NCBI GenBank assembly: GCA_035549015.1
Contig: DASZRW010000059.1
Location: forward strand, 265 to 64,264
Length of the DNA: 64,000 bases
Source of the DNA: Candidatus Kapaibacterium sp.
Lineage (GTDB): Bacteria > Bacteroidota > Ignavibacteria > OLB7
Direction: 5' to 3'
The notes below the pieces were generated by a model, which worked only from the letters and a program-made list of their open reading frames with translations, did not search any database and was not told the DNA's origin. This document shows, piece by piece, positions 12,581 to 35,658 of the stretch (position 1 is its first letter; the number at the start of each line of letters is the position of its first letter). Made by a program: the position numbers and the translations under genes.

Positions 12581-13516
12581 ATGCTTACAACCGAACAGAT
12601 CGATGGAGCGATTGTCGGGCTCCTTGTGGGGGATGCGCTCGGCGTTCCATACGAATTCCATCCGCCCGGGAGGATTCCAAGCCAGCATCTGATCGAGTTT
12701 GCACCTCCTGCCGGCTTCTTCCGTTCACACTCCGGTGTTCCAATCGGAACCTGGTCCGACGATGGTGCGCTCGCACTCTGCCTGCTTGCCTCGCTCGTGG
12801 AATGCAACGAACTGAACGTGGATGACCTTGCGTTGCGGATGACACGCTGGTTGAACAGCGGATACATGGCCGTGCGCAACCAGGTGTTCGATGTAGGAAT
12901 CGTGACGGCTGAGGCGATCGAGAGCTTGGATGCCGGTGCCGATCCGGTGCGCGCCGGCAGAACCGATGTGATGAGCAACGGGAATGGTTCGTTGATGCGT
13001 GTGCTTCCGCTTGCGCTGTGGCACCGGGGAAGCGATGCGGAGCTTGCGCGCGACGCGGAGCTGCAGTCTCGTCTTACGCATGGGCATCGCCGGGCACGCC
13101 TCTGCTGCGCACTCTATGTGCTCTGGGCCCGCCGCACGGCAGCCGGCGCTGCCGATCCGTGGTTCGATGCCGCCGATACGTTGATGGAGATCCATGCGGA
13201 TGATCCCGAGGCGCTCGAGGAACTGGAGGATGCGATTCGTCCGTACGAGGAGCGTGCAGTCAACGGCAGCGGCTACGTTGTCGATGCGCTGCACTCGGCA
13301 CGGTGGGCCGTTGAACAGGGGCCGTACGAGGTTGTGGTGAAGGCGGCGGTCTCGCTCGGGAACGACACGGATACAACGGCGTGCATTGCCGGCGGCATCG
13401 CCGGTCTGCGCGACGGCATCGATGCGATACCGTCACGCTGGAGGAATGCATTGCGCGGCCGCGAGATACTGGACCCGCTGCTCGAGGCATTCCATGCACA
13501 ACGATCGGCCGTGTGA
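12581..13516 (+). CDS. ADP-ribosylglycohydrolase family protein
   Basis: GAIVGLLVGDALGVPYEF at the N-terminus and NGSLMR...GNDTDTTACIAGGIAG at the C-terminus match the ARH/DraG family signature. Confidence 0.8.
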   Translation: MLTTEQIDGAIVGLLVGDALGVPYEFHPPGRIPSQHLIEFAPPAGFFRSHSGVPIGTWSDDGALALCLLASLVECNELNVDDLALRMTRWLNSGYMAVRNQVFDVGIVTAEAIESLDAGADPVRAGRTDVMSNGNGSLMRVLPLALWHRGSDAELARDAELQSRLTHGHRRARLCCALYVLWARRTAAGAADPWFDAADTLMEIHADDPEALEELEDAIRPYEERAVNGSGYVVDALHSARWAVEQGPYEVVVKAAVSLGNDTDTTACIAGGIAGLRDGIDAIPSRWRNALRGREILDPLLEAFHAQRSAV

Positions 13517-13635: not shown

Positions 13636-15324
13636 CTACAGCCCCGCGAGAAACGTCCCCAGATTTGCTCCGGTGTCCAGCTCCAGCTTCTTCCGGATGT
13701 TGTACTTGTGTGCGTGGATGGTGCGGATGGAGGTGTAGAGCAGATTGGCGATATCCTTCGTGGAGAGGTCAATCCGCACGAGCGAGCAGACCCGGATCTC
13801 CGTTGGCGTGAGCGAGGGATAGCGTTCCGCCAGCGTGTGCACGAAGTCGTGATGCAGCGTGCCGAGCTGCTCCTCGAAGCGCTTCCAGTCCTCGTCACCG
13901 TGCTTGGCGCTCTCGATCTTCGAGAGCATTTCGTTGATCGTGGCGCGTTCATGCTGCCCGCCTCCCAACAGCCCGGACACCTGCGCCTTCATCTCATCGA
14001 TCAGCTCCTTCTTCTGCACCAGGTTCAACGCCATCGCCGTGAGCTCGTTCTGCTTCAGCCGCATCTCCGCCTCCAACTGTGCCGTTCGCAGGCGATACAG
14101 CTCGCGCTCGCGTTCGGCCTTCTCCAGGTCGAAGCGAACCTGAATCTCCGCCAGCGCCTTCTGCCGTTCCTCCCCTGCGATCTCCTCGCGCAGGCGTGCA
14201 TGGCGTTTGAAGTGAACGAGCGCGCGGGTGGGGTCGCCAAGCGATTCGTACGTGCCGGCGATCGCGTGGTGCAACTCGTGCTGCAGATGTGGCTGGTCCA
14301 GTTCGTGCGCGATGCGCAGCGCCTGATCGAACACGAAGAGCGCCTCCTCGTGTGCACCGAGACGTGAACGGATGCCGCCGATCGCGAGCAGCGCGCGGGC
14401 CCGGAGCGCATCGTCCGATCCCGAGTCCAGCAATGCGTACGCGCGAACCGCAAACCCGAGCGCGATATCGTCGTGCCGCAGCTCGCTCTGGATGCCGGCA
14501 ATGGCCATCAACGCGCGCGCCACATTCTCCGGATCGCCCAGCGCCTCGTAGATCGCTATCGAGCGCAGCGCGTGCTCCATCGCCGTCTCCAGGTTGCCGG
14601 CCGCATGGTACAGGTCGCCGAGCGCCGTGAGCGCGCGCACCTCCTGATAGCGGTTGCCGCTCTCGCGGAACGCCGCGATGCTTCGGTTGAGACAGTCGAA
14701 CGCGGCATCGCGATTCCCCACGCGGCGATACAGCGTCCCAACCGCAAGGAGTGCCGCACCGGCTCCATCCAGATCGCCCAGCCCCTCGCGGATTGCAAGC
14801 GCTTCGAGTTGCAGATCGAGCGCGAGCGGGAAGTCCCCGATATCGGCGCGCATGGTTCCAAGCGCTGCAAGCACGGCGCTCTCATGCGCGGCAAGGCCGT
14901 GCTGCCGTGCAGCCGCATGTGCCGATCGATACCACCCCAGTGCCTGCTGCGGATCGCCTGCAGCGGCGAACGCGTCGCCAAGCATGGTGGCGGTGGCAAC
15001 CTCCCCGGCATGATCGCCAAGCTCGCCGAACATCTCGTGTGCCTCACCGAGATGCCGTACCCCGTCCGCATGACGGCCGGACGCGATTGCGCATCGCCCC
15101 TGCCAGCGCGTGAGCTCCGCAAGCGCCTCGGCATCGCGAAGCTCCGTTGCCAGCCGTACGCCGTTCCCGGCAAGCCCGAGGGCGTAGTCCGGATCGTGCG
15201 CGGCCGCCTCCGCAATCGAGCCGCGTATCGTCTCCAGGCGCCGCGCGGAATCGCGCGCCATCCGCAGGCGCTGCTCGATTGCACCAACTACCTCGTGTTG
15301 CGATGTGCTGATACCTGCCCTCAT
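13636..15324 (-). CDS. TPR-repeat transcriptional regulator with C-terminal LuxR-type HTH (paralog 1)
   Basis: Multiple TPR-like repeats, a central coiled coil, and a C-terminal LuxR/GerE HTH (LTPTEIRVCSLVRIDLSTKDIANLLYTSIRTIHAHKYNIRKKL). Confidence 0.85.
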   Translation of the reverse strand: MRAGISTSQHEVVGAIEQRLRMARDSARRLETIRGSIAEAAAHDPDYALGLAGNGVRLATELRDAEALAELTRWQGRCAIASGRHADGVRHLGEAHEMFGELGDHAGEVATATMLGDAFAAAGDPQQALGWYRSAHAAARQHGLAAHESAVLAALGTMRADIGDFPLALDLQLEALAIREGLGDLDGAGAALLAVGTLYRRVGNRDAAFDCLNRSIAAFRESGNRYQEVRALTALGDLYHAAGNLETAMEHALRSIAIYEALGDPENVARALMAIAGIQSELRHDDIALGFAVRAYALLDSGSDDALRARALLAIGGIRSRLGAHEEALFVFDQALRIAHELDQPHLQHELHHAIAGTYESLGDPTRALVHFKRHARLREEIAGEERQKALAEIQVRFDLEKAERERELYRLRTAQLEAEMRLKQNELTAMALNLVQKKELIDEMKAQVSGLLGGGQHERATINEMLSKIESAKHGDEDWKRFEEQLGTLHHDFVHTLAERYPSLTPTEIRVCSLVRIDLSTKDIANLLYTSIRTIHAHKYNIRKKLELDTGANLGTFLAGL

Positions 15325-15390
15325 TGCTCTCTGAATGGAATGGCATAATATACGGCCCCTCTGTATCCAGCCTCTCCCTCAACAACCAGG

Positions 15391-15825
15391 ATGAATGCCA
15401 TGGACGAAAGCATCGCAGTTGGAACCACGTCGCCAACCATTATCGTTCCGGTTCCCTCGGGGAGCGAGATATTCGTCTATACCCGCTTCGTGGGCACGGG
15501 TGCGAAGTCCGTGACGATCACGCCCGACACGCAGCCCCCCATGGTTGTCTCGAACTGTCCGGAGAACATCACTTCCAACACGTACTCCTTCCGGAACAAC
15601 TCCTCCTCCTCGATCAATATCACCATCGCGTCCGTTGGCTATCTGGTGCCGTGCGGCCAGGCGCCCATGGCACAGGCGTCCATGACGCCGATCGCCGCTT
15701 CATGGTGCAGCCAGGACGGCAAGGTGGGCAACACCCTCTACGGCATCGGGCCGTCGCCGTACCAGGATACGATCGGGATTACCGTGGTGGTGCAGATCGG
15801 CGTCCCCATCAACGCCGTTCCGTAA
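15391..15825 (+). CDS. Small protein, member of a 5-copy paralogous family (S1)
   Basis: 144 aa, divergent from regulator paralog 1. C-terminal motif IGITVVVQIG is shared with four other small proteins in the window. Confidence 0.55.
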   Translation: MNAMDESIAVGTTSPTIIVPVPSGSEIFVYTRFVGTGAKSVTITPDTQPPMVVSNCPENITSNTYSFRNNSSSSINITIASVGYLVPCGQAPMAQASMTPIAASWCSQDGKVGNTLYGIGPSPYQDTIGITVVVQIGVPINAVP

Positions 15826-15923: not shown

Positions 15924-18866
15924 TCAGGCTGTCCGTACGGTTTCGGCATTGATGCTCCGAAGCCGAAGAACGTCGTTGTGGTTGGCGCCAAGAGTCTGCT
16001 CCATCATCCGGATGGCCTGCTGCATGAGTGACTCGCCGGCCGCCGCATCACCGGCGGCATGCAGTGTCCATCCCAGGCGAAAGGTGCTGTTGATCGTTTC
16101 AACATTGTCGTCTCCAAGCGCGTAGCGTCGTATCTGCAGCGCACGCCGAAAGAGCGTAATCGCCTCCGGCATTTCATCGCGGCCTCGCATGACTCCGGCG
16201 AGATTCGTCACTGCCACTGCCACCATCGGATGATTCGGGCCCAGCGTTCGTTCGTAGATGCCGATCGCCTCGCGATACAGGCGGTCGGCATCCTCCGTGA
16301 TGCCCTGGCTGTGAAGCGCGAACGCCATGTTCGTGATGTTCGATGCCGCCTCCGGATGCTCCGCTCCCAGCGTTGCCCGGTTCAGTTCGAGTGCCTGCGA
16401 GAAGAATGCATGGGCCGCCTGGTGCTCGCCGGTTGCCGTCCGGACCGCGCCGAGCGTGTTGAAGACCATCGCCATGAGCAGCGGTTCCCGCGCAACATGT
16501 GCGTTGCAGAGCGCCAGTGCCTGCTGCAGTTCCTCCTCCGCCTCGGCGAAACGTCCCACGGCATAGAGCAGGGCGCCGAGATCCGCCATGTTGCGCGCCA
16601 CGTCGGGATGATACTCCCCGAGCGAGCGGCGGCGAACCGCGAGGGCGCGCCGCGATGACTCGATCGCCTCGTCGCTGCGGAAGACGTGATACAGGAGGGT
16701 GACAAGCGTATCGAGCGCCCCCGTCATCTCCAGCGTATCGCCCTGCCCATCGCCGGCGCGCATCCGCAGCGAGCGGCGGCAGAGCGCCTCGGCATCGGCA
16801 TAGCGTCCGGCCTCGAAGAGAAATCGTGCGATGGCATCGAGCGTGGCGGGAAGCGCCGACGGATCGGCCGTGCGCTCGTATTCCTTCAGACTCTGTGCGT
16901 ACGCAGGGCCCATCTCCACACGCTCGCCGATCTCCAGCCAGTAGTCGAGAAGATCGTACCCCCCGTCTGCGCCGAGAAGCGTTGTGGCGATCGGAATCGA
17001 TTCGATGCAGGCGGCAAGCTCCTCCCGGCGCCCGGCCTGCAGCCACTGCCACGGCTCCTCGAACGCCCGGCGTGCGGATACCGGTTGCGACCGGAAGAAT
17101 GTTGCAATGCGCACGTGCACATCGCCGGCCGCGTTGCCATTCTCCGCCGCCAGATATCGCGCCGCCACGGCATCGCGCAGATAGTCGTGGTAGAAGGTGA
17201 GAAGATTGTCGCGCTGAATCAGATGATGATCCATCGCCGTGAGCAGGAGATCGAGCCGGCCGGCATCGGCGCCGGTGATCGCGTGCAGCTCGGCGCGGCC
17301 CAGCCCCTGGCGCGACGCCCTGATAAGCGTGGCGACGTCGCGAACAAGCGCCTCGCCGTGCTCCGCTTCCAGACGGCGCAGCACACGGTCGAACAACTCC
17401 GTGAGATTGTGCGCCTCCAGATAGTACTCGATGCGATCGTTCACCTCGGCGCTCGTGCGGGCGCGCCGCATCTCCTCCGCGCCGGTGCGGAGGAAGAGTG
17501 GCGTGGCGCCCGCGCTGCTCTCGGAGAGCCTCGTGAGCTGCGTGCCGGAGATGGTGCCGCCGAACTCCTCGATGTAGCCGCGCAGCACCTCACGCCGTTC
17601 GCGCAGCGTGAGCGGGCGTACATCCAGCTCCGGCCATCCGCGAGCGCGCAGCCGCGCAAGGCTTTCGCCTCCGGTGGTGGAAACGATCAACCGCACCTTC
17701 GGCTGAAGATATTCGGGCAGCCAGCCCAGCGACTGCGACTCCAGGTCCAACTGGTTCAATGCATCGATGGCAAGCACAAGCTCCTCGTTCTGCACGTTGG
17801 CCAGCCAGACCGGAAACGCCTCCTCGATCTCCGCGCTTCGTTCCGGCAACGCCGTCTCCAGCGCGTACCGTTGCCGGATCTCCTCCATCACGCGCCGCAT
17901 GAGCGCATGATGGCTGCCGCCCCCCGTTCCGCAGCCAACGTAATGTTCGATCACGAACGCGTCCGGATGGCGCTCGCGGTAGCGGCTGCACCAGTGTGCG
18001 ATCAGCGCGCTCTTCCCTCCTCCTGAAACCCCGGTGATCACCATGCCCGGATTGCCGCCGGCCTCTCCGCTCCCTTCCCGGTGCGCCTTCCCCTGCTCCT
18101 CCAGATGCCGGTTGAGGCGTGCCACATAGTCATCCACATCCAGATAACTCCGGCGCCGCGTGAGTGCGTAGGCCTGGTGCGCTCGACGCTCCGCTTCGAT
18201 TGTTCCGGTACTCTCCATCGATGAGAGCGATGCCTCGATCACCCCCATGAGATCGTTCTGTATCCACCGCGCAAGCACTTCCGGTTCGGCGGCCCGCTCC
18301 CGTACGGGGAATCCGCTCCTCCTGATGCGTGCCTTCAATGCGGCAAGGCGTTCGGCGCCCGTCCCGCTTCCGGCGTCGAACCCCTCTGCGTCAGCCGCGC
18401 GTTCCGTATTCGCGCCGATCCCCTCCTCATCCTCCACGATGTAGAAGAATGCCCGCGACTCCATGGGCGGATGTCGAAGCGCGCCTTCGATCATCAACAT
18501 CTCGAGCAGCCCCATCCCTTCCTGCAGCGCTCCGTGCAGCCACGGGTGGCGGAGAAGCAGGCCGGTATTCTCCACGTCCGCATGTGTGGGAACCCATCCG
18601 TACGATCTCCCGGCAAGCCCGAGCAGGATGGGCCGTTCCCGCTGCAGCAGATCGAGCGCGAGTGCCAGGCGTCCCCCGTGCGGCATACCGGCCCGCGATG
18701 CCGGGCTGCAGGGATCGATCACCACGAGTTGTGCCTCCCGCTCGCGGCAGATCCGTTGGAGTTCCGGAAATGTCTGCGTGAGAAGATGGTCCGGAAGCGG
18801 ACCGGCTTCATCGCCGGAGCGGGCGAGAACGATCGTGATGGTTGGATGGGCACCGGTTGGTTGCAT
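15924..18866 (-). CDS. STAND NTPase (NB-ARC-like) with C-terminal TPR repeats (paralog 1)
   Basis: Walker A GVSGGGKSAL and Walker B LVLAIDALNQLD. The IVSTTG and GATPLFL (GxPL) motifs are typical of AP-ATPase/NB-ARC. The C-terminal repeats are TPR_12-like. The start is inferred at MQPTGAHP. Confidence 0.85.
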   Translation of the reverse strand: MQPTGAHPTITIVLARSGDEAGPLPDHLLTQTFPELQRICREREAQLVVIDPCSPASRAGMPHGGRLALALDLLQRERPILLGLAGRSYGWVPTHADVENTGLLLRHPWLHGALQEGMGLLEMLMIEGALRHPPMESRAFFYIVEDEEGIGANTERAADAEGFDAGSGTGAERLAALKARIRRSGFPVRERAAEPEVLARWIQNDLMGVIEASLSSMESTGTIEAERRAHQAYALTRRRSYLDVDDYVARLNRHLEEQGKAHREGSGEAGGNPGMVITGVSGGGKSALIAHWCSRYRERHPDAFVIEHYVGCGTGGGSHHALMRRVMEEIRQRYALETALPERSAEIEEAFPVWLANVQNEELVLAIDALNQLDLESQSLGWLPEYLQPKVRLIVSTTGGESLARLRARGWPELDVRPLTLRERREVLRGYIEEFGGTISGTQLTRLSESSAGATPLFLRTGAEEMRRARTSAEVNDRIEYYLEAHNLTELFDRVLRRLEAEHGEALVRDVATLIRASRQGLGRAELHAITGADAGRLDLLLTAMDHHLIQRDNLLTFYHDYLRDAVAARYLAAENGNAAGDVHVRIATFFRSQPVSARRAFEEPWQWLQAGRREELAACIESIPIATTLLGADGGYDLLDYWLEIGERVEMGPAYAQSLKEYERTADPSALPATLDAIARFLFEAGRYADAEALCRRSLRMRAGDGQGDTLEMTGALDTLVTLLYHVFRSDEAIESSRRALAVRRRSLGEYHPDVARNMADLGALLYAVGRFAEAEEELQQALALCNAHVAREPLLMAMVFNTLGAVRTATGEHQAAHAFFSQALELNRATLGAEHPEAASNITNMAFALHSQGITEDADRLYREAIGIYERTLGPNHPMVAVAVTNLAGVMRGRDEMPEAITLFRRALQIRRYALGDDNVETINSTFRLGWTLHAAGDAAAGESLMQQAIRMMEQTLGANHNDVLRLRSINAETVRTA

Positions 18867-20627: not shown

Positions 20628-21641
20628 TTATCCGATGCCGTAGTATCTCTGGAATGGAGCGTTGATGAACGGGAACTGGCCGGTTACATCCACGCTGCAA
20701 TACCACTGCTGCACAAGTCCGGTTTGCAGGCCGGTGAAGGAGAAGATCACGTCGAGCACCTTGTTCTTTCCCTGCACGGCGGAAGGGGCTGTGCGGATGC
20801 CGGTCAGTGAGTACGGCTCCTGTGTCGGGAGCTCCGATGTCGGCTGGCTCTGAGAAGGATATCGGAGGTTGTAGACCTGGGCATATGCCGATATGTATTG
20901 CAGCACGACATAGTTGATGGCGCGCTGCGGGTCCGTGTTGCCGGCATTGATCGCGAACCCGAACACCTGCGCGAAGATCGGCAGGACATTCTGCGGAGTG
21001 CCGTTCGTCAACTCGGTGATGGCACTCAGATAGCTCTGGCTGGAGGCGATGTATACCTCCTTCGCCGTCAGAACGGGAAGCCCGCCGCCGACGCGACCAT
21101 CGTCCGGAAGAGCCGTGCCTTCGGTTCCGCGAACGATGCCCCAGATCAACGAGCCCACGTCCGAAAGCGTGGGATCGTACAGCAACGCCACCAGATTCTG
21201 CAGCTCGTAGTTCGATTGCGGGTGGATCACATATACATCCGTGTTCCCCTGCTGAAACAGCCACGTCATTTCACGAGCGATGTACAGATTGTCCGTCTGT
21301 TTCAGATACCGTGCCACCAACCAGTCGATGTTCCTGTCCTGATCGGACTCGTCCAGTGTTTGAAGGAACTCCTTCTCGAGGCTGAGTGATGGAAACCGAG
21401 CAGCGATGCCGCCTACCGAGAAGACGTTCACCGCCGGAGCTGCGGCCTGCGCGCCGCTGCCGGCCGTAGCGTTCGCTGCGGAGGTGCAGGAGCAGTACGG
21501 TGCGATCTCGGATTGCATCGCGTAGTGTGTGATCGCGGTCATGCCGAGGCCTGCCTGCCACTCGCCTGCAAGGCCGCGCGCCGGTGTGCTGCCTGCAATC
21601 GTGCGAAGACTGCCTCCGGCCGTGAGTTGTGGTAGATTCAT
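20628..21641 (-). CDS. Hypothetical protein, paralog A of an unknown two-member family
   Basis: Shares CxC, LYIARE..W, A[IL]NY[VI][VI]L.Y and the C-terminal W[YF]C.VDVTGQFPF motifs with 22684..23718. The start is set at MNLPQL. The ORF-track N-terminal extension is Arg/Ser low complexity. Confidence 0.6.
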   Translation of the reverse strand: MNLPQLTAGGSLRTIAGSTPARGLAGEWQAGLGMTAITHYAMQSEIAPYCSCTSAANATAGSGAQAAAPAVNVFSVGGIAARFPSLSLEKEFLQTLDESDQDRNIDWLVARYLKQTDNLYIAREMTWLFQQGNTDVYVIHPQSNYELQNLVALLYDPTLSDVGSLIWGIVRGTEGTALPDDGRVGGGLPVLTAKEVYIASSQSYLSAITELTNGTPQNVLPIFAQVFGFAINAGNTDPQRAINYVVLQYISAYAQVYNLRYPSQSQPTSELPTQEPYSLTGIRTAPSAVQGKNKVLDVIFSFTGLQTGLVQQWYCSVDVTGQFPFINAPFQRYYGIG

Positions 21642-21786
21642 GATTCTCTCCTGTATCGAGCGTTGATGTCGAGTTACGTTGTCGCGGAACCTTGCTGGCT
21701 GCGCATCGCGGAAGCGCACGCGAAGGCGCGCCGGCCTCGGGGCCTTTCTCCTGAGCGCCTGCCGACGGGCATGAATGGCCCCAGCC

Positions 21787-24743: not shown

Positions 24744-24959
24744 CTCTGCTCAGCGTTGCCGGCCGGGGAAGCCGCGTCCGTTGAACGGCTGCAAAGTTCG
24801 GACCGATGCACCCGGCACGCGTTACTGAATTCGTACGTAGCCGTATGCACTCTGCATTCCCTTTCAGCGCATGCCGGCCCGGTATGCATGGCCGGCCGGC
24901 CGCTCCGGGCAGGCGCGGCGGGGAGGCGTGGACGAGTCAAGCGATGGTGGTATCAGATA

Positions 24960-26681
24960 TTACGTAGGCCGGGCTCCGTGAAGGCCGGCGAGGAATGTGG
25001 TGAGGTTCATCCTCGGGCTCAGGCCAAGCTTCCTGCGGATGTTGTGGCGGTGCGTATGAACGGTGCGCACCGATGTGAACAGGAGGTTCGCGATTTCCCT
25101 GGTGGAGAGGTTGATGCGGGTGAGCGAGCAGATGCGAAGCTCCGTTGGCGTCAGCGCCGGCCATTGCTGCGAGAGATGCTGCAGGAAATCCTGATGCGGC
25201 GTATCCAGCTGTCCCTCGAATGCAAGCCAGTCGCTTTCTCCCCCGGAGGCGTGGCGCAGCTCGGCGATCATCCTCTCCACGGAATCATCTCCGCTTCCTT
25301 CCTGATTCCCGGCCCGTGCCGCCCGTGTGGTGTGCTGCAGTTTCTGCAGGCGCCGCTCCAGCGTTTCAAGCAGCTCGTTCTTCTGAACCAGGCGCAGGGA
25401 CATCGCAGCGATCTCGCTCTGCCGCGCGCGCGCCTCGGCCTCCAACGTCTCGGCGCGCAGACGGTAGGCCTCCCGCTCGCGGTCCGAACGTTCCAGATCG
25501 AATCGTACCTGCAACTCCGCCAGAGCGCGTTGCTTCTCGACGCCGGCCAGCTCCTCGCGCAGCGCTCCATGGAGCCTGCAATGTTCCAGCGCGCGCTCGC
25601 TGCGCCCAAGCCGGTGATACAGCGCCGAGAGCGCGGCATGCGCTTCCGCCTGTTGCTGAAGCGCGCCGGTTGCTCGTGCCAGGCCCAGCACCTGATCGAA
25701 AATGAAGAGCGCGCGATCGTATTCTCCGATGCCGGCATGCAGCCGGCCAAGCGCCAGAAGAATGCGAACGCGCAGAGCGTCATCGGAGCCGTCGCGCAAC
25801 GAGGCATAGGCGCGCATCGCCATCGCGAGCGCCGCGGCGGGTTCTCCCATCTGTTCGTGAATCTCGCTTATCAGGATCATCACGGCGCAGGCGCTCTGCG
25901 CGTCGTTCAACATGTCGTAAATTGTCAGCGCACGTAGTGCATGGTCGATCGCGCGCCGAGGCTCGCCGCGCCAGAGGTCGATCTCCGCCATGCGCGTACG
26001 CGCCTCAATTTCCCCCAACCGATTCCCCGTCTCCCGACATAGAACGATGCTGCGTTCCAGCGCCTCGATTGCGCCCGGTGCGTCGTGTGTGCGCATGTGG
26101 AGCGCAGCCAGCGATGCAAGGATGCGTGCGGCCGCATGGCGATCGCCCTGCATCTCCTGCAGAGCAAGGCTTTCCAGGTAGCGCTCCATCGCCTGTGCGT
26201 AATCGCCGATCGATGCGTACAGGTCGCCCAGCGATTCGAGCGCGGCGGCGCGGGTCGCCGGGGCCTGGCTGCCGGCCTCCTCCAGCGCCGTGTGGTACCA
26301 TCGATGGGCCTGCGTGCGATCGCCCGCGCCCGTGAACGCCTGCGCAGCGGCAAGGGCGCAGGAGGATGCGCTGTCGTGCCGTTGAAGCTCGGAGAATATT
26401 CCATGTGCCTCGCGGAGATCCTCCAGTGCCGCGGTATGCTGCTCCAGCCGTTGCAACGCGCAGCCGCGTAGATACAGCAGCATTGCGGAGGAGGCGATAT
26501 TCCGCAGGCGTACGGAGATCGCGTACCCTTCGGATGCCAGGCCGGCTGCATACGATGGCTGCTCGCGGACGAGAGCCGGGAGCGATGCCAGGATCAACTC
26601 CAGCTTCCGCGCGGCATCGCTCGTCATCAGCAGGCGTTGCTCGATCTGCCCGGTATCCGTGGTTCCCATTTCGATCTGCAT
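24960..26681 (-). CDS. TPR-repeat transcriptional regulator with C-terminal LuxR-type HTH (paralog 2)
   Basis: Same architecture as paralog 1. C-terminal LTPTELRICSLTRINLSTREIANLLFTSVRTVHTHRHNIRRKL. The start is inferred at MQIEMGTTD. Confidence 0.85.
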   Translation of the reverse strand: MQIEMGTTDTGQIEQRLLMTSDAARKLELILASLPALVREQPSYAAGLASEGYAISVRLRNIASSAMLLYLRGCALQRLEQHTAALEDLREAHGIFSELQRHDSASSCALAAAQAFTGAGDRTQAHRWYHTALEEAGSQAPATRAAALESLGDLYASIGDYAQAMERYLESLALQEMQGDRHAAARILASLAALHMRTHDAPGAIEALERSIVLCRETGNRLGEIEARTRMAEIDLWRGEPRRAIDHALRALTIYDMLNDAQSACAVMILISEIHEQMGEPAAALAMAMRAYASLRDGSDDALRVRILLALGRLHAGIGEYDRALFIFDQVLGLARATGALQQQAEAHAALSALYHRLGRSERALEHCRLHGALREELAGVEKQRALAELQVRFDLERSDREREAYRLRAETLEAEARARQSEIAAMSLRLVQKNELLETLERRLQKLQHTTRAARAGNQEGSGDDSVERMIAELRHASGGESDWLAFEGQLDTPHQDFLQHLSQQWPALTPTELRICSLTRINLSTREIANLLFTSVRTVHTHRHNIRRKLGLSPRMNLTTFLAGLHGARPT

Positions 26682-26806: not shown

Positions 26807-27268
26807 ATGGATTCCCCATCCACACCGGCCGGCTCTGTTGCCCGGTCGGTTATCGATTTCAAGCTCCCGGTGGCGAAGAACCAGCAGGCGTTGGTGCTGG
26901 TTCGGTTCACCGGGACGTTGGCGAAGTGGGTCTCCGTGTACTTCCCGAACCGCATCAAGGTGGTGTCCAGTTGCGAAGCCGGCACCACCGCCGTGCCCAT
27001 CGTGCTGGACAATCACGGCGAGGAGCCGATGGATCTGCAGCTCGTGCCGGAATGCAGCGAGAAGGAGTGTCCCGATCAGAATCCCTCCGCGCAGCTGAAC
27101 GTGATTCTCCAGTACGAATCGTCCAGCCCGATGCGCCACTGGCTGCTCTCCGCATCGGAGATATCGGAATCCGATACGATCTCCATCACCATCATCGTGC
27201 AACCCGGCATCATCATCGACCCCGGAAGCGGAGATGCAGTACGTATTCCGGCCCGCACCATGCCGTGA
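26807..27268 (+). CDS. Small protein, paralogous family member (S2a)
   Basis: 153 aa. ATG preceded by a GGAG-like RBS. C-terminal ISITIIVQPGIII motif. Confidence 0.5.
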   Translation: MDSPSTPAGSVARSVIDFKLPVAKNQQALVLVRFTGTLAKWVSVYFPNRIKVVSSCEAGTTAVPIVLDNHGEEPMDLQLVPECSEKECPDQNPSAQLNVILQYESSSPMRHWLLSASEISESDTISITIIVQPGIIIDPGSGDAVRIPARTMP

Positions 27269-27357: not shown

Positions 27358-27765
27358 ATGCTGCAATCCGACAATCCAGCCTTCCCCGCTGCTCTGCCTG
27401 TTCCAACGTTCCCCATGGTAGGGACGTCGGACGCCAATCTGATCTGTCTTGTCCATGTCGCGTTTCTGGGGCCTACTGAAAAGGTCGTCACCTTCACTCT
27501 CGTCGGTCGCAGCGCCCCCTGGATCACCGTGAACTCCGGCGATGGTCCGTTCTGGAGCCGCATATTCCAGCCGAAGGACGGGCTGAGCCTGATAGGGGTG
27601 CCCGATGTGGCGAACTGCGCGTGGTGGTCGCCGCTCGGTGCCTGCGCCGGCAGCATATACTCCGCCTTCACCTACGGATATTCGCTCAACACCGGCATCG
27701 ATCAGGATGCCGTGCTGATCACCATTATCGTGCAGCCGGGAATCATCGCTCCCATTCCACTGTAG
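27358..27765 (+). CDS. Small protein, paralogous family member (S2b)
   Basis: 135 aa. C-terminal VLITIIVQPGIIAPIPL motif. Confidence 0.5.
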   Translation: MLQSDNPAFPAALPVPTFPMVGTSDANLICLVHVAFLGPTEKVVTFTLVGRSAPWITVNSGDGPFWSRIFQPKDGLSLIGVPDVANCAWWSPLGACAGSIYSAFTYGYSLNTGIDQDAVLITIIVQPGIIAPIPL

Positions 27766-27786: not shown

Positions 27787-30700
27787 TTACAGTGCGAACT
27801 CCATCCGGTACGCCAGTTGTGCCTGGATCTCGTTGCAGATCGCATGCAGGGAGATGATGTCCGGATGGGTTGCGCCCAGGTGCGCCTCGTGAATCGGAAT
27901 GGCCCGGCTGTAGATCTCGAACGCCTCGCCCAGACGTCCCTGCATGCGCAGCGCCCCGGCCAGGCGGGTAGCGCTGCCGGCCGTTTCCAATGCGTCCGCT
28001 CCGAACAGATCGCGGCGGATAACATACGCGCGCCGCAGCAGCTGCTCCCCCTCCTCCAGCTCGCCGCTGTCGCGCAGCATCATGCCGAAGCTGGTCAGGA
28101 AGAGAGCGGTCCTTGGATGCCGTGCGCCGAGAATCCGCTCGGCGCACGCAAGCGCATGCCGGTAGTGCACGGCTGCTGCGGAGGTATTGCCCATCTGTTG
28201 AAGCGCGAATCCCAGGTTCACCCGGTTCGATGCCGTCTCCAGATGTCCCTCTCCCAGCAGGCAGCCGTTCACCGCAAGGGCGCGTTCGAAGTACATGGCT
28301 GCCTCGGCGAAGTCCCCGCGAGCCACCCGCATCGCGCCGAGATTGTTCACGATCATCGCAACCGCAGCCTCGTCCGCGTCGTTGGCGAGGCAGAGCGCCT
28401 CCAGCAGGTGGATGTCCGCCTCCGCATGGTCCCCGCATGCATGGTACATCGCACCCAGCGCGGCCAGATTGCGTGCACGGTGCTTCGCATCCATTCCAGA
28501 CGCAGCTTCGCGCAGGCGCAGCGCGCGTTCGGAGACGCGGATCGCCCGCTCCCACTCTCCCGTGTGATAGAGCAGCGTTGCGTACGAATCCAGTGCCGGG
28601 AGCATCGTGGGGTTGTCCTCACCGTGAGCAGCGCCGCGCTCCTCCAGTGCCGTGCGGCACAGGTGCTCCGCCTCGGCGTAGTGCCCGGCGTGAAGCAGAA
28701 GGCCGGCAATGGCCTCGCGTGCTGCGACGAGATCCAGCGAAGGGTTCGCTTCCAGCTGGCAGGCCTGCATCGCAGTGCGATACGTTTCCACCATGCCGTA
28801 CCGATTCTCCAGCGCCCTCCAGTATTGCAGCAGTTCGTACGGGTCGCCGTCGGCAAGCAGCATCGATGCCGTCCGGATATCCGCGATGGCGGTGTGAAGC
28901 TTCCGCCATGCGCCGGCATGCATTGCCTGCCACGGTATCTCCTCCACGTGGCGGCGTGCAATGGGCTGGGATGCAAACCAGTCCGCGATCCGCTCGCGGA
29001 TCTCCGGGATGCGTCCGGGGCGTTCCACCAGATAGCGCCGCTCCACGGCTCTGCGGAATCCGTCGTGGTGGAAGCGGAACAGTCCCTCGTGGCCGATCAG
29101 ATGGCAGCCGAGCGACGCCAGCACCTCCTCCGTCTCCCCTTCGTCCAACAGGCCGATCGCCGCGATCTCCTGCCGCGCAAGGCCGCGGCGGGCCGCCCAT
29201 AGCAGGGTGAGCACCGTGCGCATCCGTGCCACGCCATGCCGGCCTTCCAGTTGTTCCAGTACGCGATCGAACAGCTCCGGCAGCGTCTCCGCCGCGAGAA
29301 GGCGATTCAGGAGAGCCGGTTCATCTGCGCCGGAAGCGGTTGCGTTCAGCCTCTCCAGTTGCGTTCTCAGATAGAGGGGGTTGCCTCCTGCCGTCCCCGC
29401 CCCGATGCGTGCGTACCAGTCGCCGTAGCGTGCCTCCCCGAACTCGCGAACGTATCGGGTTATCAGGTCGCGCCGTTGCTTCTGCGTAAGCTGCACCATG
29501 CGAAGCTCCGGCCAGGCTCGCGCGTGCAACGCCGCCAACGGTTCGGTATCGGTGGTGGAGACGATCAGCAGCACATGCGGCGGAATATGTTCAGGAAGCC
29601 AGGAGAGATCCCGGGAAGCTTCGTCGAGCTGATCGAGGCCGTCCACCACCAGCACCAGGTTCTCATGTTGAAGATGTCCCAGCCAGAGCGGAAACGCCTC
29701 ACGAATGCCGGCGGCATCCGTTGGGAGCGGATCGTCCACGCCGAGGCGTTCCCGTATCTCCGCCATGATGTGGCGCAGCACCGTGGCGCCGTCGTTGCCG
29801 GCGGATGCGGCCGCCACGTGATGCTGCACGATGAAGAGGTGGGGATGCTCGCTCCTGATCCGTTCGCACCAGTATGCCAGGAGTGCGCTCTTTCCCGCGC
29901 CCGATTCACCGGACACCACCAGCCCGGCATTGCGCTCCGGCTCGTCCCTCTCCGCAGCCGCCGTTCCGGGCTGGTTGTTCAGGAAATCGTCCAGGCGCTC
30001 CAGGTATCCCGGAATCTCCATGTAGGCATGCGTGCGCGAACGCGCGAACGATCGGTGCATCCGGCGCTCCGCATCGAGAGGCGAGCCGGTGGCAGCGGGA
30101 AAGAGGCGGTTGATCAGGTCCATCAGGTCGCGGCGAACGAGGTCGAGCAACTGCTCCCGCGTATGCACTGTGTGGTGCAGCGTCTGCCCGCTGGATCGGA
30201 TCATGTCCAGGATGCGCTCGCGTGCGGCGGCCGCAACGTTGCGCCGGCGCCGCGGCATCGCATCGTAGTACGACATTTCCTTCTCCGCCTGCGTACCGGA
30301 GACCGATGGAGGGGGTGCGGTGGCGTAGGCCTCCGGATGTTCCGGAGCCGGGTCATAGGGGAAGAACAACATCCTTCCGGCGAGCGCCGGGTTCCGGAGC
30401 GCGCCTGCGAGCGCCTCCATCGAAAGAAGGAACGGTGAGCCGGCAGTCCCTGCGCTGCGCCAGCGATACGGGTCGGTGCGGGCATCGCGGCCATCTGCGG
30501 CAGGGGGGCCCTCTACCGCCGGGTTGCTTCCAACGATCACCAGCACATAGATCCGCTGCCCGGTGTGCGCTGCAGGGGGGTGGTTGAAGATCGTCTCACC
30601 GTATGCCCCGGCTGTATCTGTGCCTGCAAGCTCGCACGTGGCGATATCTCCGCCGCGCGCGCGGCAGATGCCGCTCAGCTCCGGCAGCAGCGCCTGAGCC

Positions 30701-30804
30701 AGCCATGCTCGTTCCGCATCGATATCGCACTGTATGCCGACGATCGCGATCCGGATCAACGGGAACGCATCGTGCGGCGATGGTGCCGAGGGCTCGCAAC
30801 TCAT
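27787..30804 (-). CDS. STAND NTPase (NB-ARC-like) with C-terminal TPR repeats (paralog 2)
   Basis: Walker A GESGAGKSAL, Walker B LVLVVDGLDQLDE, IVSTTD and GGNPLYL motifs, and a TPR_12-like C-terminal array. The start is inferred at MSCEPSAP. Confidence 0.85.
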   Translation of the reverse strand: MSCEPSAPSPHDAFPLIRIAIVGIQCDIDAERAWLAQALLPELSGICRARGGDIATCELAGTDTAGAYGETIFNHPPAAHTGQRIYVLVIVGSNPAVEGPPAADGRDARTDPYRWRSAGTAGSPFLLSMEALAGALRNPALAGRMLFFPYDPAPEHPEAYATAPPPSVSGTQAEKEMSYYDAMPRRRRNVAAAARERILDMIRSSGQTLHHTVHTREQLLDLVRRDLMDLINRLFPAATGSPLDAERRMHRSFARSRTHAYMEIPGYLERLDDFLNNQPGTAAAERDEPERNAGLVVSGESGAGKSALLAYWCERIRSEHPHLFIVQHHVAAASAGNDGATVLRHIMAEIRERLGVDDPLPTDAAGIREAFPLWLGHLQHENLVLVVDGLDQLDEASRDLSWLPEHIPPHVLLIVSTTDTEPLAALHARAWPELRMVQLTQKQRRDLITRYVREFGEARYGDWYARIGAGTAGGNPLYLRTQLERLNATASGADEPALLNRLLAAETLPELFDRVLEQLEGRHGVARMRTVLTLLWAARRGLARQEIAAIGLLDEGETEEVLASLGCHLIGHEGLFRFHHDGFRRAVERRYLVERPGRIPEIRERIADWFASQPIARRHVEEIPWQAMHAGAWRKLHTAIADIRTASMLLADGDPYELLQYWRALENRYGMVETYRTAMQACQLEANPSLDLVAAREAIAGLLLHAGHYAEAEHLCRTALEERGAAHGEDNPTMLPALDSYATLLYHTGEWERAIRVSERALRLREAASGMDAKHRARNLAALGAMYHACGDHAEADIHLLEALCLANDADEAAVAMIVNNLGAMRVARGDFAEAAMYFERALAVNGCLLGEGHLETASNRVNLGFALQQMGNTSAAAVHYRHALACAERILGARHPRTALFLTSFGMMLRDSGELEEGEQLLRRAYVIRRDLFGADALETAGSATRLAGALRMQGRLGEAFEIYSRAIPIHEAHLGATHPDIISLHAICNEIQAQLAYRMEFAL

Positions 30805-30887
30805 TGCCGGTTCCGAAAGAATGGTTGACACGAACTGCTGCAATCGCATGCGGCGGCCTGGCCCATGCGGTTGCCGGACATATCGCG

Positions 30888-32217: not shown

Positions 32218-32828
32218 GTCGCTTGTTCCTGAGTTGATTGATACGTGAAGAGTGATTGCTCCGGCCGATCGTGAGCGCCTGCATGCGCCGCTGTGCACAC
32301 GGCTGCATCAAGCCTCGGAGTGCGCGGCCACGCGAGATGTTGAGGCGCGGCTGCATGTGTCACGATCGGCCTTGCGGTTGTGTTGTCCGTCATGACGTTC
32401 ATGCAAAGGTCGCTGCACCGTGCGGCCGCAGATCTACTGAGGTATTACCGAGTTTATTCGCCCCACGCCGGGCCCTTGCTCTGCATGCGCTGCAGGGCGA
32501 ACGCGCGCAATCGGGCGCAGTCTGCGGGAAGTTCAAGGGGGTGCGGCCACGCAGCCCGTTTCGTGCAGGGGATTGAAGTCGGCGTCGACATCCGGCTGGC
32601 GCATCTTCGGTACTGAACTTCTACCGAGGCGGCGCCGTTCATGAGCCGACGGCGCGAAGGAATTGCGCGGCTGCGATGCGGAACGCACGGCCCGGCAGGC
32701 GGAAAGCCGCGGCCGTGTATGGCAGGCAGGGAGCAGTGATGCGGCGGAGATCGACTGCCGGGCAGGCGGCCGTCCACCCGGGAATGAGAGGGGAGAGAGT
32801 GATGATGATTCGAGCACCCGGCCGTGGA

Positions 32829-34511
32829 CTAGAGCGAGGCGAGGAAGGTAGTGAGGCTCACCTTCGAGTCCAGGCGAAGTTTGCGGCGGATGTTGTACTT
32901 GTGCGAGTCCACCGTGCGAACGGAGGTGCAGAGAATTGCGGCGACATCCTTGGTGGAGAGATTGATGCGGGCAAGCGAGCAGATCTTCAACTCCGTCGGC
33001 GTCAGCAGCGGGCAGCGCTCCGAAAGGAGCCGGATGAAGTCCTGATGGAGATGATCGAGCTGCTGCTCGAATATCTTCCAGTCCGCATCGGCATGCTTCG
33101 TGCTGGTGATCTCGCTGATCATCCGTTCAACCGTATCGGTGCCGGAGCGGCGGCTCTCGCCGTGCAGCTTCTCGAGTTGATACTGCATGTCGGCGAGCAG
33201 TTCCTTCTTCTGCAGAAGGTTTACCGCCATGGCCGTGAGCTCGTTCTGCTTCAGTCGCATCTCGGCGCGGAGCCCTTCAACCTGCAGGCGATACATTTCC
33301 CGCTCGCGCTCCGCCTTCTCCAGATCGAACCGAACCTGCAGTTCGGCGATTGCATGCTGCTTCTCGCGACCGGCCAGTTCGTTCCGGAGTTCCGCGAAAT
33401 GGCGATAGTGTTCGAATGCCCATTCAATCTGTCCAAGGTGGTGATAGGCATGCGAGATGGCGCCGTGCACCTCGTACTGAAGACGCCGATCGTCGATCGC
33501 GCGCGCCAGTGCCAGCGCCTGATCCAGCACGAAGACGGCGTCGTCCATCGCGCCGAGTGCGGTGTGCAGGCGCCCCATGTCCAGCAGAAGCTCCACGCGC
33601 CGCGTGTCGTCGGGCGACTGGCCCAGCAGCGAGTAGGCGCGCATTGTGAGGCCCAGCGCGGCATCGTACTCATGCCGTGCCGCATGAACGCGTCCCAGCA
33701 TCGCCAGCACGGTCCCCACATTCTGCAGGTCCCCCAGCGTCTCGTAGATCGTGAGCGCCCGAAGTCCGTGTTCGGCTGCGCTCTCGCCGTTGCCGGTGGC
33801 GAGATCTATTTCGGCGAGATGCCGCAGTGCGTCCACTTCACGGAGACGATTCCCGGATTCCCGGAACACCTCGGCGCTTCGGCGCAGATATTCGCGGGCG
33901 GTCGTGTGGTCGTTCGTGCGTCCGTACAGGATGCCGACCGCGGCCAGGGCATGCCCCACACCGTCGTGTACATCGCTCGATTCATACAGCCGGAGAGCGT
34001 CCAGATAATATCCGAGCGCCTTCGGGTAGTCGCCGATGCTCATTCTCAGATCGCCGATGGAGAGTGCCGCCGCGGCCTGGAGGTCCGATGCCCCGGCATG
34101 CATTGCCCGTTCGAGTGCCGTATGCAGCCAGTCGATCGCATGCGGGGCCATGCCGGCGGCGAGGTGCGCCCGGCCTGCCTGCAGTGCGCAGACGGCGGCT
34201 TCCGAGTCGTGGCCAAGATCCACATTGATGCAGTACGCCTCCACAAGGTCGGCAGCCCCCGCATCGTGATTTCCGAGAACAACGTATGCCTCGCCGCGAC
34301 GGCGCAGAATGCGTGCAGCTGCCGCCATGTTGCGCGACGAGGCGGCGAGGCGATACCCCTCGCTCGCCAGGCCGACACTGTACGGCGCGGCGCCGGCCGC
34401 GGCCTCGTCGAGAAATTCCAGAATCAGATCGAGCTTCCGATTCCGATCCTGCGCCATCAACAGCCGGCGTTCGATCGCCTCGATAATTCGTTCCTGGTCT
34501 GCTGTCCCCAT
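32829..34511 (-). CDS. TPR-repeat transcriptional regulator with C-terminal LuxR-type HTH (paralog 3)
   Basis: Same architecture. The C-terminal 200 aa are nearly identical to paralog 1. The start is inferred at MGTADQERIIEAIERR (561 aa), which matches the paralog lengths. The ORF-track 5' extension overlaps the opposite-strand genes. Confidence 0.85.
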   Translation of the reverse strand: MGTADQERIIEAIERRLLMAQDRNRKLDLILEFLDEAAAGAAPYSVGLASEGYRLAASSRNMAAAARILRRRGEAYVVLGNHDAGAADLVEAYCINVDLGHDSEAAVCALQAGRAHLAAGMAPHAIDWLHTALERAMHAGASDLQAAAALSIGDLRMSIGDYPKALGYYLDALRLYESSDVHDGVGHALAAVGILYGRTNDHTTAREYLRRSAEVFRESGNRLREVDALRHLAEIDLATGNGESAAEHGLRALTIYETLGDLQNVGTVLAMLGRVHAARHEYDAALGLTMRAYSLLGQSPDDTRRVELLLDMGRLHTALGAMDDAVFVLDQALALARAIDDRRLQYEVHGAISHAYHHLGQIEWAFEHYRHFAELRNELAGREKQHAIAELQVRFDLEKAEREREMYRLQVEGLRAEMRLKQNELTAMAVNLLQKKELLADMQYQLEKLHGESRRSGTDTVERMISEITSTKHADADWKIFEQQLDHLHQDFIRLLSERCPLLTPTELKICSLARINLSTKDVAAILCTSVRTVDSHKYNIRRKLRLDSKVSLTTFLASL

Positions 34512-34727
34512 GATCCGTTGCCATAACGATGAAAGAATACATCCGGCACGAACGCGCGGTGCGGAGTGCGGCGGTGTTCGTCTGCGCCGCCGGTCAACTC
34601 GGTAATTCCTCAGTAGTGCGGAAGCCCGTCCATCTCGATACCATTGCACCAACCAACACCGGGCCGTGCAACGCAGCGGCCCGCCAACATCAGCCGGCAT
34701 GTTTGCCGCAACCAGGAGGATCTCATC

Positions 34728-35150
34728 ATGACAGGTGCAGGTATCGTCACCATCGAGGAACTCGAAGCGATCACATCCATTCCGATCACCGAATTCCTTC
34801 CGGACTCCTACTGCCAGATCGTAGTCGAGTCCACGTTGAACGAGACCGTCGTGGTTTCGATCGTTGATGCCAAACTCATCGCAGTCGAAGGCGACAAGCT
34901 GGCCGGCGGGGAATCGTATACAACGCGCATCTCCGGCGAGGATATGTCGCTCCAGCCCTACACGCTGAACATCCTCTCGCGAACCGCGATGATTCATACC
35001 TGCAAGACCGGCTACTACACACTCCCGGACGACGAGACGAATTATCAGATCGAACTGTGCCGCATGGTGCCGTTTCCCGACACGACAACGGACGGGCAGA
35101 TCAACATCACGATCATCCTCCAGCCCACGGACATCCTCACGGAGCCGTAG
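34728..35150 (+). CDS. Small protein, paralogous family member (S3a)
   Basis: 140 aa. AGGAGG RBS before the ATG. C-terminal INITIILQPTDIL motif. Confidence 0.5.
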   Translation: MTGAGIVTIEELEAITSIPITEFLPDSYCQIVVESTLNETVVVSIVDAKLIAVEGDKLAGGESYTTRISGEDMSLQPYTLNILSRTAMIHTCKTGYYTLPDDETNYQIELCRMVPFPDTTTDGQINITIILQPTDILTEP

Positions 35151-35229: not shown

Positions 35230-35658
35230 ATGGCGGAACACTGGCATGCTCGTCATGGAGGACCCATTCGTGTACCGGTATTTCCCGTAATCGATCCCGG
35301 CGTCGGACTCTATGTGGTTATTCATATCGTGTTCAACGGGTCCGGGCTGAAGAGGGTGACATTCACACGCCCGGGAGAAACGATGCCGTGGCTTGTGGCG
35401 GAATTGCCGGGGACCGGTTTCTGGAATCATGTATACCGTCATCAGGATGGCATCAGCCGCCTTGCGATATCCGGAATGGACTCGATGCCGGATTGGACGT
35501 TCCTCGGCCAGAAGAAAATGACGAGCGACGGCGTCGTCTCCGCGTACACGTGCCAGTATCTCCTTGCGGAGAGCCCGCATGAGTCCGTGCTCGTCACCAT
35601 TCTTCAACTGCCCGGATCGCCGGGCGGAGCTGCTGAAGCGCCGCGCCGTGTAGTGTGA
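35230..35658 (+). CDS. Small protein, paralogous family member (S3b)
   Basis: 142 aa. C-terminal VLVTILQLPGSPG motif. Confidence 0.5.
   Translation: MAEHWHARHGGPIRVPVFPVIDPGVGLYVVIHIVFNGSGLKRVTFTRPGETMPWLVAELPGTGFWNHVYRHQDGISRLAISGMDSMPDWTFLGQKKMTSDGVVSAYTCQYLLAESPHESVLVTILQLPGSPGGAAEAPRRVV

Follow-up and report, generated by a model that had tools for sequence, protein, structure and literature searches.

Does an NLR-like ATPase encoded close to a LuxR-type regulator form with it a MalT- or AfsR-like transcription factor whose parts are divided between two polypeptides? This question is raised by a 64,000-nucleotide stretch of Candidatus Kapaibacterium sp. (assembly GCA_035549015.1, contig DASZRW010000059.1, positions 265 to 64,264; referred to here as the window). 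It carries, at 15924-18866, the gene for an NLR-like ATPase of the STAND type (STAND1) and, near it, the gene for a regulator with tetratricopeptide repeats (TPRs), a coiled coil and a LuxR-type helix-turn-helix (HTH), which we call LuxR1. The segment 15924-18866 spans the ATPase alone and not its LuxR partner. An earlier note on this DNA had interpreted the pair as a split version of the regulators that carry nucleoside triphosphatase (NTPase), sensor and DNA-binding domain in one chain. The conserved association of an ATPase with a LuxR protein is borne out by our analysis, but the idea of a split regulator is not, because the two proteins belong to unrelated families. Judged from the sequences, the locus does not appear to encode MalT or AfsR cut in two; rather, two complete and unrelated units are associated, together with a third, small protein, and the three probably work together; a functional tie between the ATPase and the LuxR protein is very probable. 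We tentatively read them as a conserved three-gene cassette of the Kapaibacteriaceae, in which the ATPase would relay its state to the LuxR partner and the output would be transcription. No description of the ATPase/TPR-LuxR pairing was found in the literature searched.

Recurrence of the ATPase/LuxR pair

The trio of STAND, small-protein and LuxR genes occurs three times in the window (Table 1), with the ATPase and LuxR genes all on the minus strand and the small genes all on the plus strand. Each of the three TPR-GerE genes of the window lies at most 1.3 kb from a same-strand NACHT-TPR gene. The earlier note had counted a single trio and lacked the third conserved gene, that of the small protein. 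It had also described the LuxR gene as adjacent to the ATPase gene; the gene and its domains are real, but a 144-aa gene on the opposite strand (s1) lies between the two. This gene is convergent with STAND1, the two stop codons lying 98 bp apart, and divergent from LuxR1, from which 66 bp separate it. Pairwise identities within the window are 37-45% among the ATPases, 43-49% among the LuxR proteins and 20-30% among the small proteins; these paralogues appear to be old, yet each pair has been kept. In Pfam searches, GerE is absent from STAND1-3, and BTAD and Trans_reg_C are absent from STAND1-3 and LuxR1-3 alike. In a related genome, GCA_018266795.1, module 1 has 90-95% identity to that of the window, and both module 2 and the adjacent PatG-like cluster are missing from between modules 1 and 3. 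As no partial module 2 is left at that position, the comparison suggests that whole cassettes are acquired or lost.

Beyond the window, genomic context was read for seven LuxR1 relatives, for one genome per species (14 loci) and for metagenome contigs (9 loci), and the ATPase was used for tblastn in the scanned loci. Wherever the flanks could be read, a TPR-LuxR gene with 39% identity or more to LuxR1 has a same-strand STAND homologue (33-90% identical) beside it, which gives about 19 distinct modules, and GCA_018266795.1 holds several that are unlinked (L001, L002, L003). TPR-LuxR genes of 37% identity or less have no STAND neighbour (L006/L030, L031, L023, L024, L032-L035 and a second copy in L009). 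The more distant relatives of LuxR1 stand alone among housekeeping genes; within the clade of LuxR1, the STAND link is constant wherever the flanks are readable. Approached from the ATPase side, P0007 (35% identical to STAND1) was found in the same trio, and P0012 (32% identical) has unrelated neighbours. P0011 (35% identical; locus L025), also found from the STAND side, has directly upstream a TPR-HTH gene whose product is ~32-36% identical to LuxR1, so that this pair is linked though it falls under the 39% line.

At some loci the STAND gene precedes the LuxR gene. L021, L022 and L025 show the reverse arrangement: the LuxR gene comes first and the STAND gene follows after ~50-230 nt without an intervening gene, yet the STAND 3′ end still has a small beta-rich gene convergent with it. 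That the pairing is kept through a change in gene order is the strongest argument for a functional tie. The distance matrices of STAND and LuxR proteins are correlated (Mantel r = 0.87, p ≤ 2e-4, 16 modules), the well-resolved nearest-neighbour pairs agree, and divergence of the STAND TPRs is likewise correlated with that of the LuxR TPRs (r = 0.82). Three of the loci (L013, L014 and L021) come from metagenome-assembled genomes (MAGs) titled 'uncultured Alphaproteobacteria bacterium'; their modules are 39-52% identical to those of Kapaibacteriaceae, and the bins are probably mislabelled.

The three proteins of the module

According to Pfam, STAND1 consists of an AAA_16/NACHT domain (aa 269-433), an NWD1-type winged helix (aa 486-534; HTH_NWD1 is borderline at 26.3 bits against a cut-off of 27) and repeats of the TPR_NPHP3, TPR_12 and TPR_10 types (aa 590-958; TPR_NPHP3 reaches 130 bits, with a cut-off at 100). 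No Pfam match to GerE, BTAD, Trans_reg_C or NB-ARC (PF00931) was obtained. The ATPase had previously been labelled NB-ARC; it is NACHT/AAA_16 instead, and NACHT is above its cut-off in both STAND2 and STAND3. The Walker A (GVSGGGKS, aa 279) and Walker B (LVLAIDALNQ, aa 363) motifs are both intact, and a transmembrane segment is predicted nowhere in the protein. Sequence matches of the TPR array in the PDB are to the kinesin light chains KLC1 and KLC2.

A structural model of aa 1-600 (pLDDT 82, pTM 0.71) places an N-terminal alpha/beta domain first, followed by a helical linker and the nucleotide-binding, helical and winged-helix domains. Because the sole winged helix in the model is the one common to every STAND module, STAND1 carries no cryptic DNA-binding effector domain. 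The search for a hidden HTH thus brought up nothing beyond the module's own winged helix, and the earlier statement that the ATPase-TPR protein has no HTH of its own is upheld, both by this model and by the missing GerE, BTAD and Trans_reg_C matches. In Foldseek searches, the model superposes about equally well on MalT (8bob), Apaf-1, Avs3, CED-4, ORC/Cdc6 and NLRP9. As all STAND and AAA+ modules score alike, structure could not assign STAND1 to a clade. More than 200 homologues at E ≤ 1e-10, often labelled nephrocystin-3 in their source databases, have the architecture DUF4062 (PF13271), NACHT and TPR_NPHP3, and by sequence STAND1 appears to be an NACHT/NPHP3-like member of this widespread DUF4062-NACHT-TPR (NPHP3/NWD1-like) family. 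A Candidatus Kapabacteria MAG, of a lineage within Kapaibacteriaceae, Bacteroidota, encodes a protein with 100% identity to STAND1.

The N-terminal domain of STAND1 has no Pfam match even at E ≤ 10. P0004, a paralogue 42% identical to STAND1, does carry PF13271. DUF4062, which functions both in phage defence (Swarozyc, Evangelion) and in human TEP1, has recently been shown to be a TIR-like NADase that relies on a catalytic Glu; in NWD1, NWD2, NPHP3 and TEP1 it stands before NACHT (bioRxiv 10.64898/2026.05.01.722283; bioRxiv 10.64898/2026.06.25.731849). The catalytic Glu, then a Tyr, are found ~76 residues past an N-terminal aromatic residue (bioRxiv 10.64898/2026.06.25.731849). The hallmark motifs of the family (RVFISSTFRD..ER, DLRWG, GERYGW and S[VI]TE[LM]E) are eroded in STAND1, where SSTF has become ARSG, DLRWG has become DPCSP and GERYGW has become GRSYGW. 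This last motif is the likely equivalent of the catalytic Glu site and is absent from STAND2, although its position also varies among canonical members, which makes the assignment uncertain. Canonical DUF4062 relatives keep 42-53 of the 53 family-conserved residues, against 23 in STAND1, 16 in STAND2, 15-20 each in L003, L004, L009 and P0007, and 31-32 in L021 and L022. Six of the 11 LuxR-linked STAND proteins that were scored keep just 15-23. Within the linked clade the N-terminal domain is the fastest-evolving part, with a mean identity of 24%, compared with 47% for the nucleotide-binding module and 35% for the TPRs. We infer that enzymatic output has been lost in most LuxR-linked copies.

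LuxR1 has TPRs (TPR_12) at ~aa 60-375, a charged and very conserved helical stretch at ~aa 378-450 (13975-14193) and GerE at aa 504-549 (13678-13815). No transmembrane segment is predicted anywhere in it, and its TPRs therefore face the cytoplasm. These repeats resemble those of LGN/Pins, whereas the ATPase repeats resemble kinesin light chain, so that two different repeat types are present; the LuxR1 TPR region also weakly matches AfsR-type TPRs. A word-indexed search returned 16 full-length LuxR1 relatives. An exhaustive search of 1.84 billion representatives with the coiled-coil-HTH part (aa 378-562) yielded 18,797 representative clusters at E ≤ 1e-3, 6,480 of them at E ≤ 1e-10. In the best 150 of the 18,797 matches, which were inspected, nearly all proteins have 500-650 aa, the match is C-terminal and the longest has 726 aa; all ten LuxR1-family members sampled consist of TPRs and GerE. 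The C-terminal part also gives weak NCBIfam matches to the BT3442 and SusR models, far under the curated cut-offs (for SusR, NF058541, 26 bits against 480). In general, these results place the LuxR partner in a very large family of self-contained regulators of ~555 aa with TPRs, coiled coil and LuxR domain, most of which seem to stand alone, with apparently one clade only tied to the ATPase.

The small protein s1 is predicted to adopt a LecB/PA-IIL-like fold. Its modelled beta-sandwich matches that of the fucose lectin LecB/PA-IIL of Pseudomonas aeruginosa at 10% identity, but the acidic calcium- and sugar-binding loop of the lectin is not kept across the small-protein family, and the loop before the last strand is hypervariable. 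The family is marked by an N-terminal V.V.FxG...K.V and a C-terminal D.IGITIVVQ.G around a hypervariable centre. The small proteins have no Pfam (E ≤ 10 for s1), NCBIfam or PADLOC match, and the model has no match among viral structures at E ≤ 1e-3. A profile search returned five database relatives only, of which at least four were traced to cassette-bearing contigs. The gene between STAND and LuxR differs by locus: L008 and L020 have another small beta-rich type. In L015 (6914-7435, minus strand) and L017 (inside 6919-7773), the product of the intervening gene is lipoprotein-like: ~173 aa long, it carries a signal peptide as well as a lipobox-like Cys (…LLAIGCKHK…) and is not of the LecB-fold type, and in L009 an extra orphan gene of 402 aa (5807-7015, minus strand) lies between the STAND and small-protein genes. 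We also considered amyloid signalling of the NLR-associated kind, in which the C-terminal motif of the small protein would match the STAND N-terminus. This idea was rejected, because the STAND N-terminal strand opens a TIR-like fold and the motif of the small protein forms a strand inside the modelled sandwich.

Candidate operator and surroundings of the modules

A tandem repeat recurs in the divergent regions that lie upstream of the LuxR genes. Its consensus, nTTACCTAGAAAGTACCTAGA, consists of two TACNTAG units in an 11-bp register (TACNTAG-N4-TACNTAG). In 371 kb of non-redundant loci, the exact form TACNTA-N5-TACNTA is present at 18 distinct sites, compared with a mean of 0.01 and a maximum of 1 in Markov resamples; a few of the 18 are not independent, as L015 and L017 are close relatives. 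Fourteen sites lie within 400 bp of the end of a TPR-LuxR gene, a zone that holds ~10% of the bases. Typically, one copy is located in the divergent region between the LuxR gene and the small gene, and a second, in the opposite orientation, 6-290 bp past the LuxR stop codon. The two copies are thus oriented alike with respect to the genes that are transcribed away from LuxR. The genes downstream of the repeat are unrelated between loci. The placement of the repeat suggests that it may be bound by the LuxR protein.

In the window, the variant TACTGAGGWATTACCGAG has two exact copies, which flank LuxR3, where 0.06 were expected. The second TACTGAGGWATTACCGAG-type copy precedes the gene for an orphan 210-aa protein (MANNYELSLQ...; 31585-32217, minus strand, and 5373-6005 in L001), which has no Pfam match, and this makes the gene a candidate LuxR3 target. 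For the one-mismatch site near LuxR2, the expectation was 0.08, and a match turned up in 7 of 100 shuffles, so that it is weak when taken alone. The intergenic region of the module 1 orthologue is 97% identical and hence uninformative for the repeat. A scan of module 1 for sigma-70 promoters and terminators, with a tool that holds no Bacteroidota promoters, gave no more matches than shuffled sequences.

Table 1. Positions of the cassette genes, domains and repeat sites in the window.
Feature	Position	Strand	Description	Basis or remark
STAND1	15924..18866	-	NLR-like ATPase, 980 aa	Single open reading frame, ATG at 18866
Decayed DUF4062/TIR-like domain of STAND1	18432..18845	-	aa 8-145	Alignment with DUF4062 of homologues; alpha/beta fold in model
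NACHT-type nucleotide-binding, helical and winged-helix domains of STAND1	17151..18062	-	aa 269-572	Pfam, Walker motifs, Foldseek
TPR sensor array of STAND1	15942..17099	-	aa 590-975, kinesin-light-chain type	TPR_NPHP3, TPR_12, TPR_10
s1	15391..15825	+	144-aa small protein, predicted LecB/PA-IIL-like beta-sandwich	Between LuxR1 and STAND1
LuxR1/s1 divergent region	15325..15390	.	66 bp	No tandem-repeat copy found
LuxR1	13636..15324	-	562-aa TPR/coiled-coil/LuxR-type HTH regulator	Pfam
STAND2	27787..30849	-	1020-aa paralogue, 37% identical to STAND1	Pfam/open reading frame
s2b	27358..27765	+	Same-family small protein	Converges on STAND2
s2a	26807..27268	+	Same-family small protein	Divergent from LuxR2
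LuxR2	24960..26669	-	TPR/coiled-coil/LuxR paralogue	Start uncertain; P0133 (560 aa), taken as the same gene, is slightly shorter
One-mismatch TACNTA-N5-TACNTA	24823..24839	+	Repeat-like site	Just downstream of LuxR2, upstream of S8 peptidase gene
STAND3	35796..38747	-	983-aa paralogue	
s3b	35230..35658	+	Same-family small protein	Converges on STAND3
s3a	34728..35150	+	Same-family small protein	Divergent from LuxR3
Candidate operator TACTGAGGAATTACCGAG	34598..34615	-	Tandem repeat	LuxR3/s3a divergent region
LuxR3	32829..34511	-	TPR/coiled-coil/LuxR paralogue, ~560 aa	
Second copy TACTGAGGTATTACCGAG	32435..32452	+	Tandem repeat	Downstream of LuxR3, upstream of orphan 210-aa gene
Contrast protein	43712-47065	-	1117 aa	AAA_16 at aa 37-174

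Several other genes lie near the modules. Just downstream of LuxR2, and preceded by the one-mismatch repeat, is a PatG-like cluster (20628-24743, minus strand) that contains an S8 subtilase (23778-24743), two PatG_D/PatG_C-domain proteins (22684-23718 and inside 20628-22055) and, at 21787-22647, a LamG/concanavalin-like protein; in L025, an S8 peptidase and a transglutaminase-like gene are found near the module. A gene for an ADP-ribosylglycohydrolase (12581-13516, plus strand) converges on the 3′ end of LuxR1. It is kept in the orthologous locus L001 and was not seen at other modules, and its position beside a protein derived from an NADase type may be a coincidence. In L002 (15554-17147) and L003 (2986-3670 and 14012-14916), the modules have neighbours of the kind usually seen in variable or defence islands, namely genes for phage-tail Collar-domain proteins, AbiEii, a toxin-antitoxin-like Gp49/HTH pair and an HTH-bearing ImmA/IrrE-like peptidase.

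Elsewhere in the window, a TPR-only protein of 1019 aa without ATPase (53698-56757, minus strand) adjoins a TonB-dependent-receptor-like beta-barrel (51920-53587, minus strand); it recalls at first sight the pairing of a large protein with a neighbour but does not represent a module. A PLD-like protein with a type IX secretion sorting domain (Por_Secre_tail; 42224-43678, minus strand) fits a Bacteroidota origin. Long opposite-strand reading frames that overlap real genes, such as 16686-18026 and 35655-38816 on the plus strand, have no family matches and are typical of DNA with 63% G+C.

Possible signalling or local regulation, and comparison with known systems

In the relay that we tentatively propose, the cassette would comprise a cytoplasmic NLR-like STAND protein, one or two small, fast-evolving proteins of predicted LecB-like fold and a soluble TPR/coiled-coil/LuxR regulator. 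The LuxR protein would bind TACNTAG-N4-TACNTAG flanking its own gene and so control the small-protein gene or genes and a variable downstream gene. The ATPase would sense a signal by means of its TPR array and nucleotide switch and, its own enzymatic output lost, would pass its state to the LuxR protein by protein contact, with transcription as the output. The domain content, the linkage in both gene orders, the co-divergence, the N-terminal decay and the enrichment and placement of the repeat are observations; we infer the binding of the repeat by LuxR, the contact between ATPase and LuxR protein and the direction of signal flow. A more far-reaching version, which we consider rather unlikely, is that the TIR-like NADase output of a bacterial NLR-like NACHT protein has been abandoned and that the protein now signals through a separately encoded, co-evolving LuxR factor as a counterpart of CIITA/NLRC5, with several insulated paralogous cassettes per genome that each drive their own small variable genes from a shared tandem-repeat operator.

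A number of observations weigh against such a relay. The co-divergence of STAND and LuxR proteins is also expected from tight linkage alone, and all examples come from MAGs of one family, the Kapaibacteriaceae. Module 1, the LuxR2/s2a divergent region and the sequences upstream of the STAND genes yielded no copy of the repeat. Three LuxR-linked proteins (P0004, P0003 and P0011) retain canonical DUF4062 motifs, with 42-45 of the 53 residues kept; the linkage is then older than the decay and does not depend on it. A STAND-LuxR fusion was not seen, in that GerE occurs in none of the 120 best STAND homologues and no protein exceeds 726 aa among the best 150 of the 18,797 coiled-coil-HTH matches. 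Finally, P0099, a more distant Kapaibacterium STAND protein, has a convergent small gene of the same family and no TPR-LuxR gene within 6 kb, so that the STAND/small-protein pair may be the older core and the LuxR protein an accessory.

This last case also fits the main alternative, possible if doubtful, that the association reflects regulation only. The LuxR protein would then be a self-contained one-component regulator whose own TPRs do the sensing and which controls the small proteins, the variable downstream gene and perhaps the co-directional ATPase, while the STAND protein acts alone with the small protein, for example as an NLR-like sensor in defence or conflict, and never signals to LuxR. 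The large autonomous family of ~555-aa proteins to which the LuxR partner belongs (6480 clusters at E ≤ 1e-10), the more distant members that stand alone among housekeeping genes and the position of the repeat where the operator of a local regulator would sit all agree with this alternative, as do the action of DUF4062 relatives in phage defence and the AbiEii, Gp49/HTH and ImmA/IrrE-like genes beside some modules. However, it leaves unexplained why the pairing survives a change in gene order and why all copies of the LuxR clade are linked. Moreover, the repeat is not found upstream of the STAND genes, PADLOC finds no defence family and the context in the window is one of chromosomal housekeeping genes.

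It is improbable that the genes are neighbours merely through shared descent of a duplicated segment in one family. The restriction to Kapaibacteriaceae-type MAGs and the co-divergence expected of linked genes would agree with this view, but paralogous pairs only 37-49% identical, at unlinked loci with unrelated flanks, have in no case lost a partner, the pairing has been kept where the order was rearranged, and module 2 is absent as a whole from between modules 1 and 3 of the related genome. That a MalT-, LAL- or AfsR-type regulator was split into an ATPase-sensor chain and a DNA-binding chain that reassemble as a MalT-like machine is very improbable, since the NTPase, TPRs and LuxR HTH that the pair holds together, the sub-threshold TPR_MalT matches in both proteins (35 bits against a cut-off of 45) and the presence of MalT (8bob_C, E = 6e-8) among the best structural matches are offset by an NACHT/NPHP3-like ATPase with a DUF4062-derived N-terminus that MalT, LAL and AfsR lack, by a nucleotide-binding profile that finds no MalT or AfsR in the PDB, by equally good structural matches to Apaf-1, Avs3, ORC and NLRP9, by TPR arrays of different types (kinesin-light-chain-like and LGN/Pins-like) and by a LuxR chain that is a complete member of an autonomous family, with no fused ancestor or relative found among the 120 best STAND homologues and the best 150 of the coiled-coil-HTH matches.

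Bacterial STAND or NLR-like proteins are known in two forms, as one-chain transcription factors (MalT, AfsR, GutR) and as immune sensors with their own enzymatic effector. A clade with a decaying effector that is locked to a transcription factor and a lectin-fold protein would, if the proposed relay is true, represent a third form, in which output is delivered in trans through transcription. The window, with its three ancient paralogous cassettes, is a natural setting in which to test partner specificity. Should the LuxR protein do no more than regulate the locus, what remains is a clean cassette not described before, with a candidate operator, of local interest only.

The STAND and LuxR pair shares with MalT and the LAL regulators a parts list (an NTPase, a helical-repeat sensor after it and a LuxR HTH) and the idea of an ATP-dependent switch that controls a LuxR-type HTH. 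The modelled nucleotide-binding, helical and winged-helix fold of STAND1 superposes on that of MalT (8bob_C, TM 0.55 on the target, E = 6e-8). In the cassette, however, the parts are on two polypeptides, the ATPase is of the NACHT type and preceded by a ~260-aa region derived from DUF4062, and the LuxR chain has its own TPR sensor and coiled coil; the profile of the nucleotide-binding module retrieved just P-loop noise from the PDB sequences. AfsR/SARP proteins (OmpR-type winged HTH, BTAD, NB-ARC and TPRs) resemble the proposed relay in that both use NLR-like ATPases with TPRs for transcription control. The cassette proteins lack BTAD, Trans_reg_C and NB-ARC, and their HTH is of the LuxR type and on the other chain. 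The protein in the window that had been cited as a canonical fused AAA16-BTAD regulator matches AAA_16 only (Pfam at E ≤ 10, NCBIfam and PDB sequence search). Its last ~220 aa look SARP-like by eye (winged HTH plus BTAD), an unconfirmed assignment that, if real, would give a domain order the reverse of that in AfsR.

The closest relatives of STAND1 are bacterial DUF4062-NACHT-TPR proteins and those of the NPHP3/NWD1/TEP1 type, with which it aligns along its whole length and whose architecture it appears to share. The STAND clade differs from them in an N-terminus that has lost most of its conserved residues and, unlike more distant relatives such as P0012, in its tie to a TPR-LuxR gene and a small gene. 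LuxR1 has the same layout as the Bacteroidota TPR-(transmembrane)-coiled-coil-HTH regulators such as BT3442 and SusR, the latter a membrane-spanning glycan sensor, but it has no membrane segment and is linked to a STAND gene. Among defence systems, PADLOC gave no match, a generic TPR model apart. CIITA and NLRC5 are vertebrate NACHT transcription co-activators that do not bind DNA themselves. With them, the proposed cassette can be compared by way of a working analogy only, as homology is limited to the NACHT module and the repeats of the cassette are TPRs and not leucine-rich repeats.

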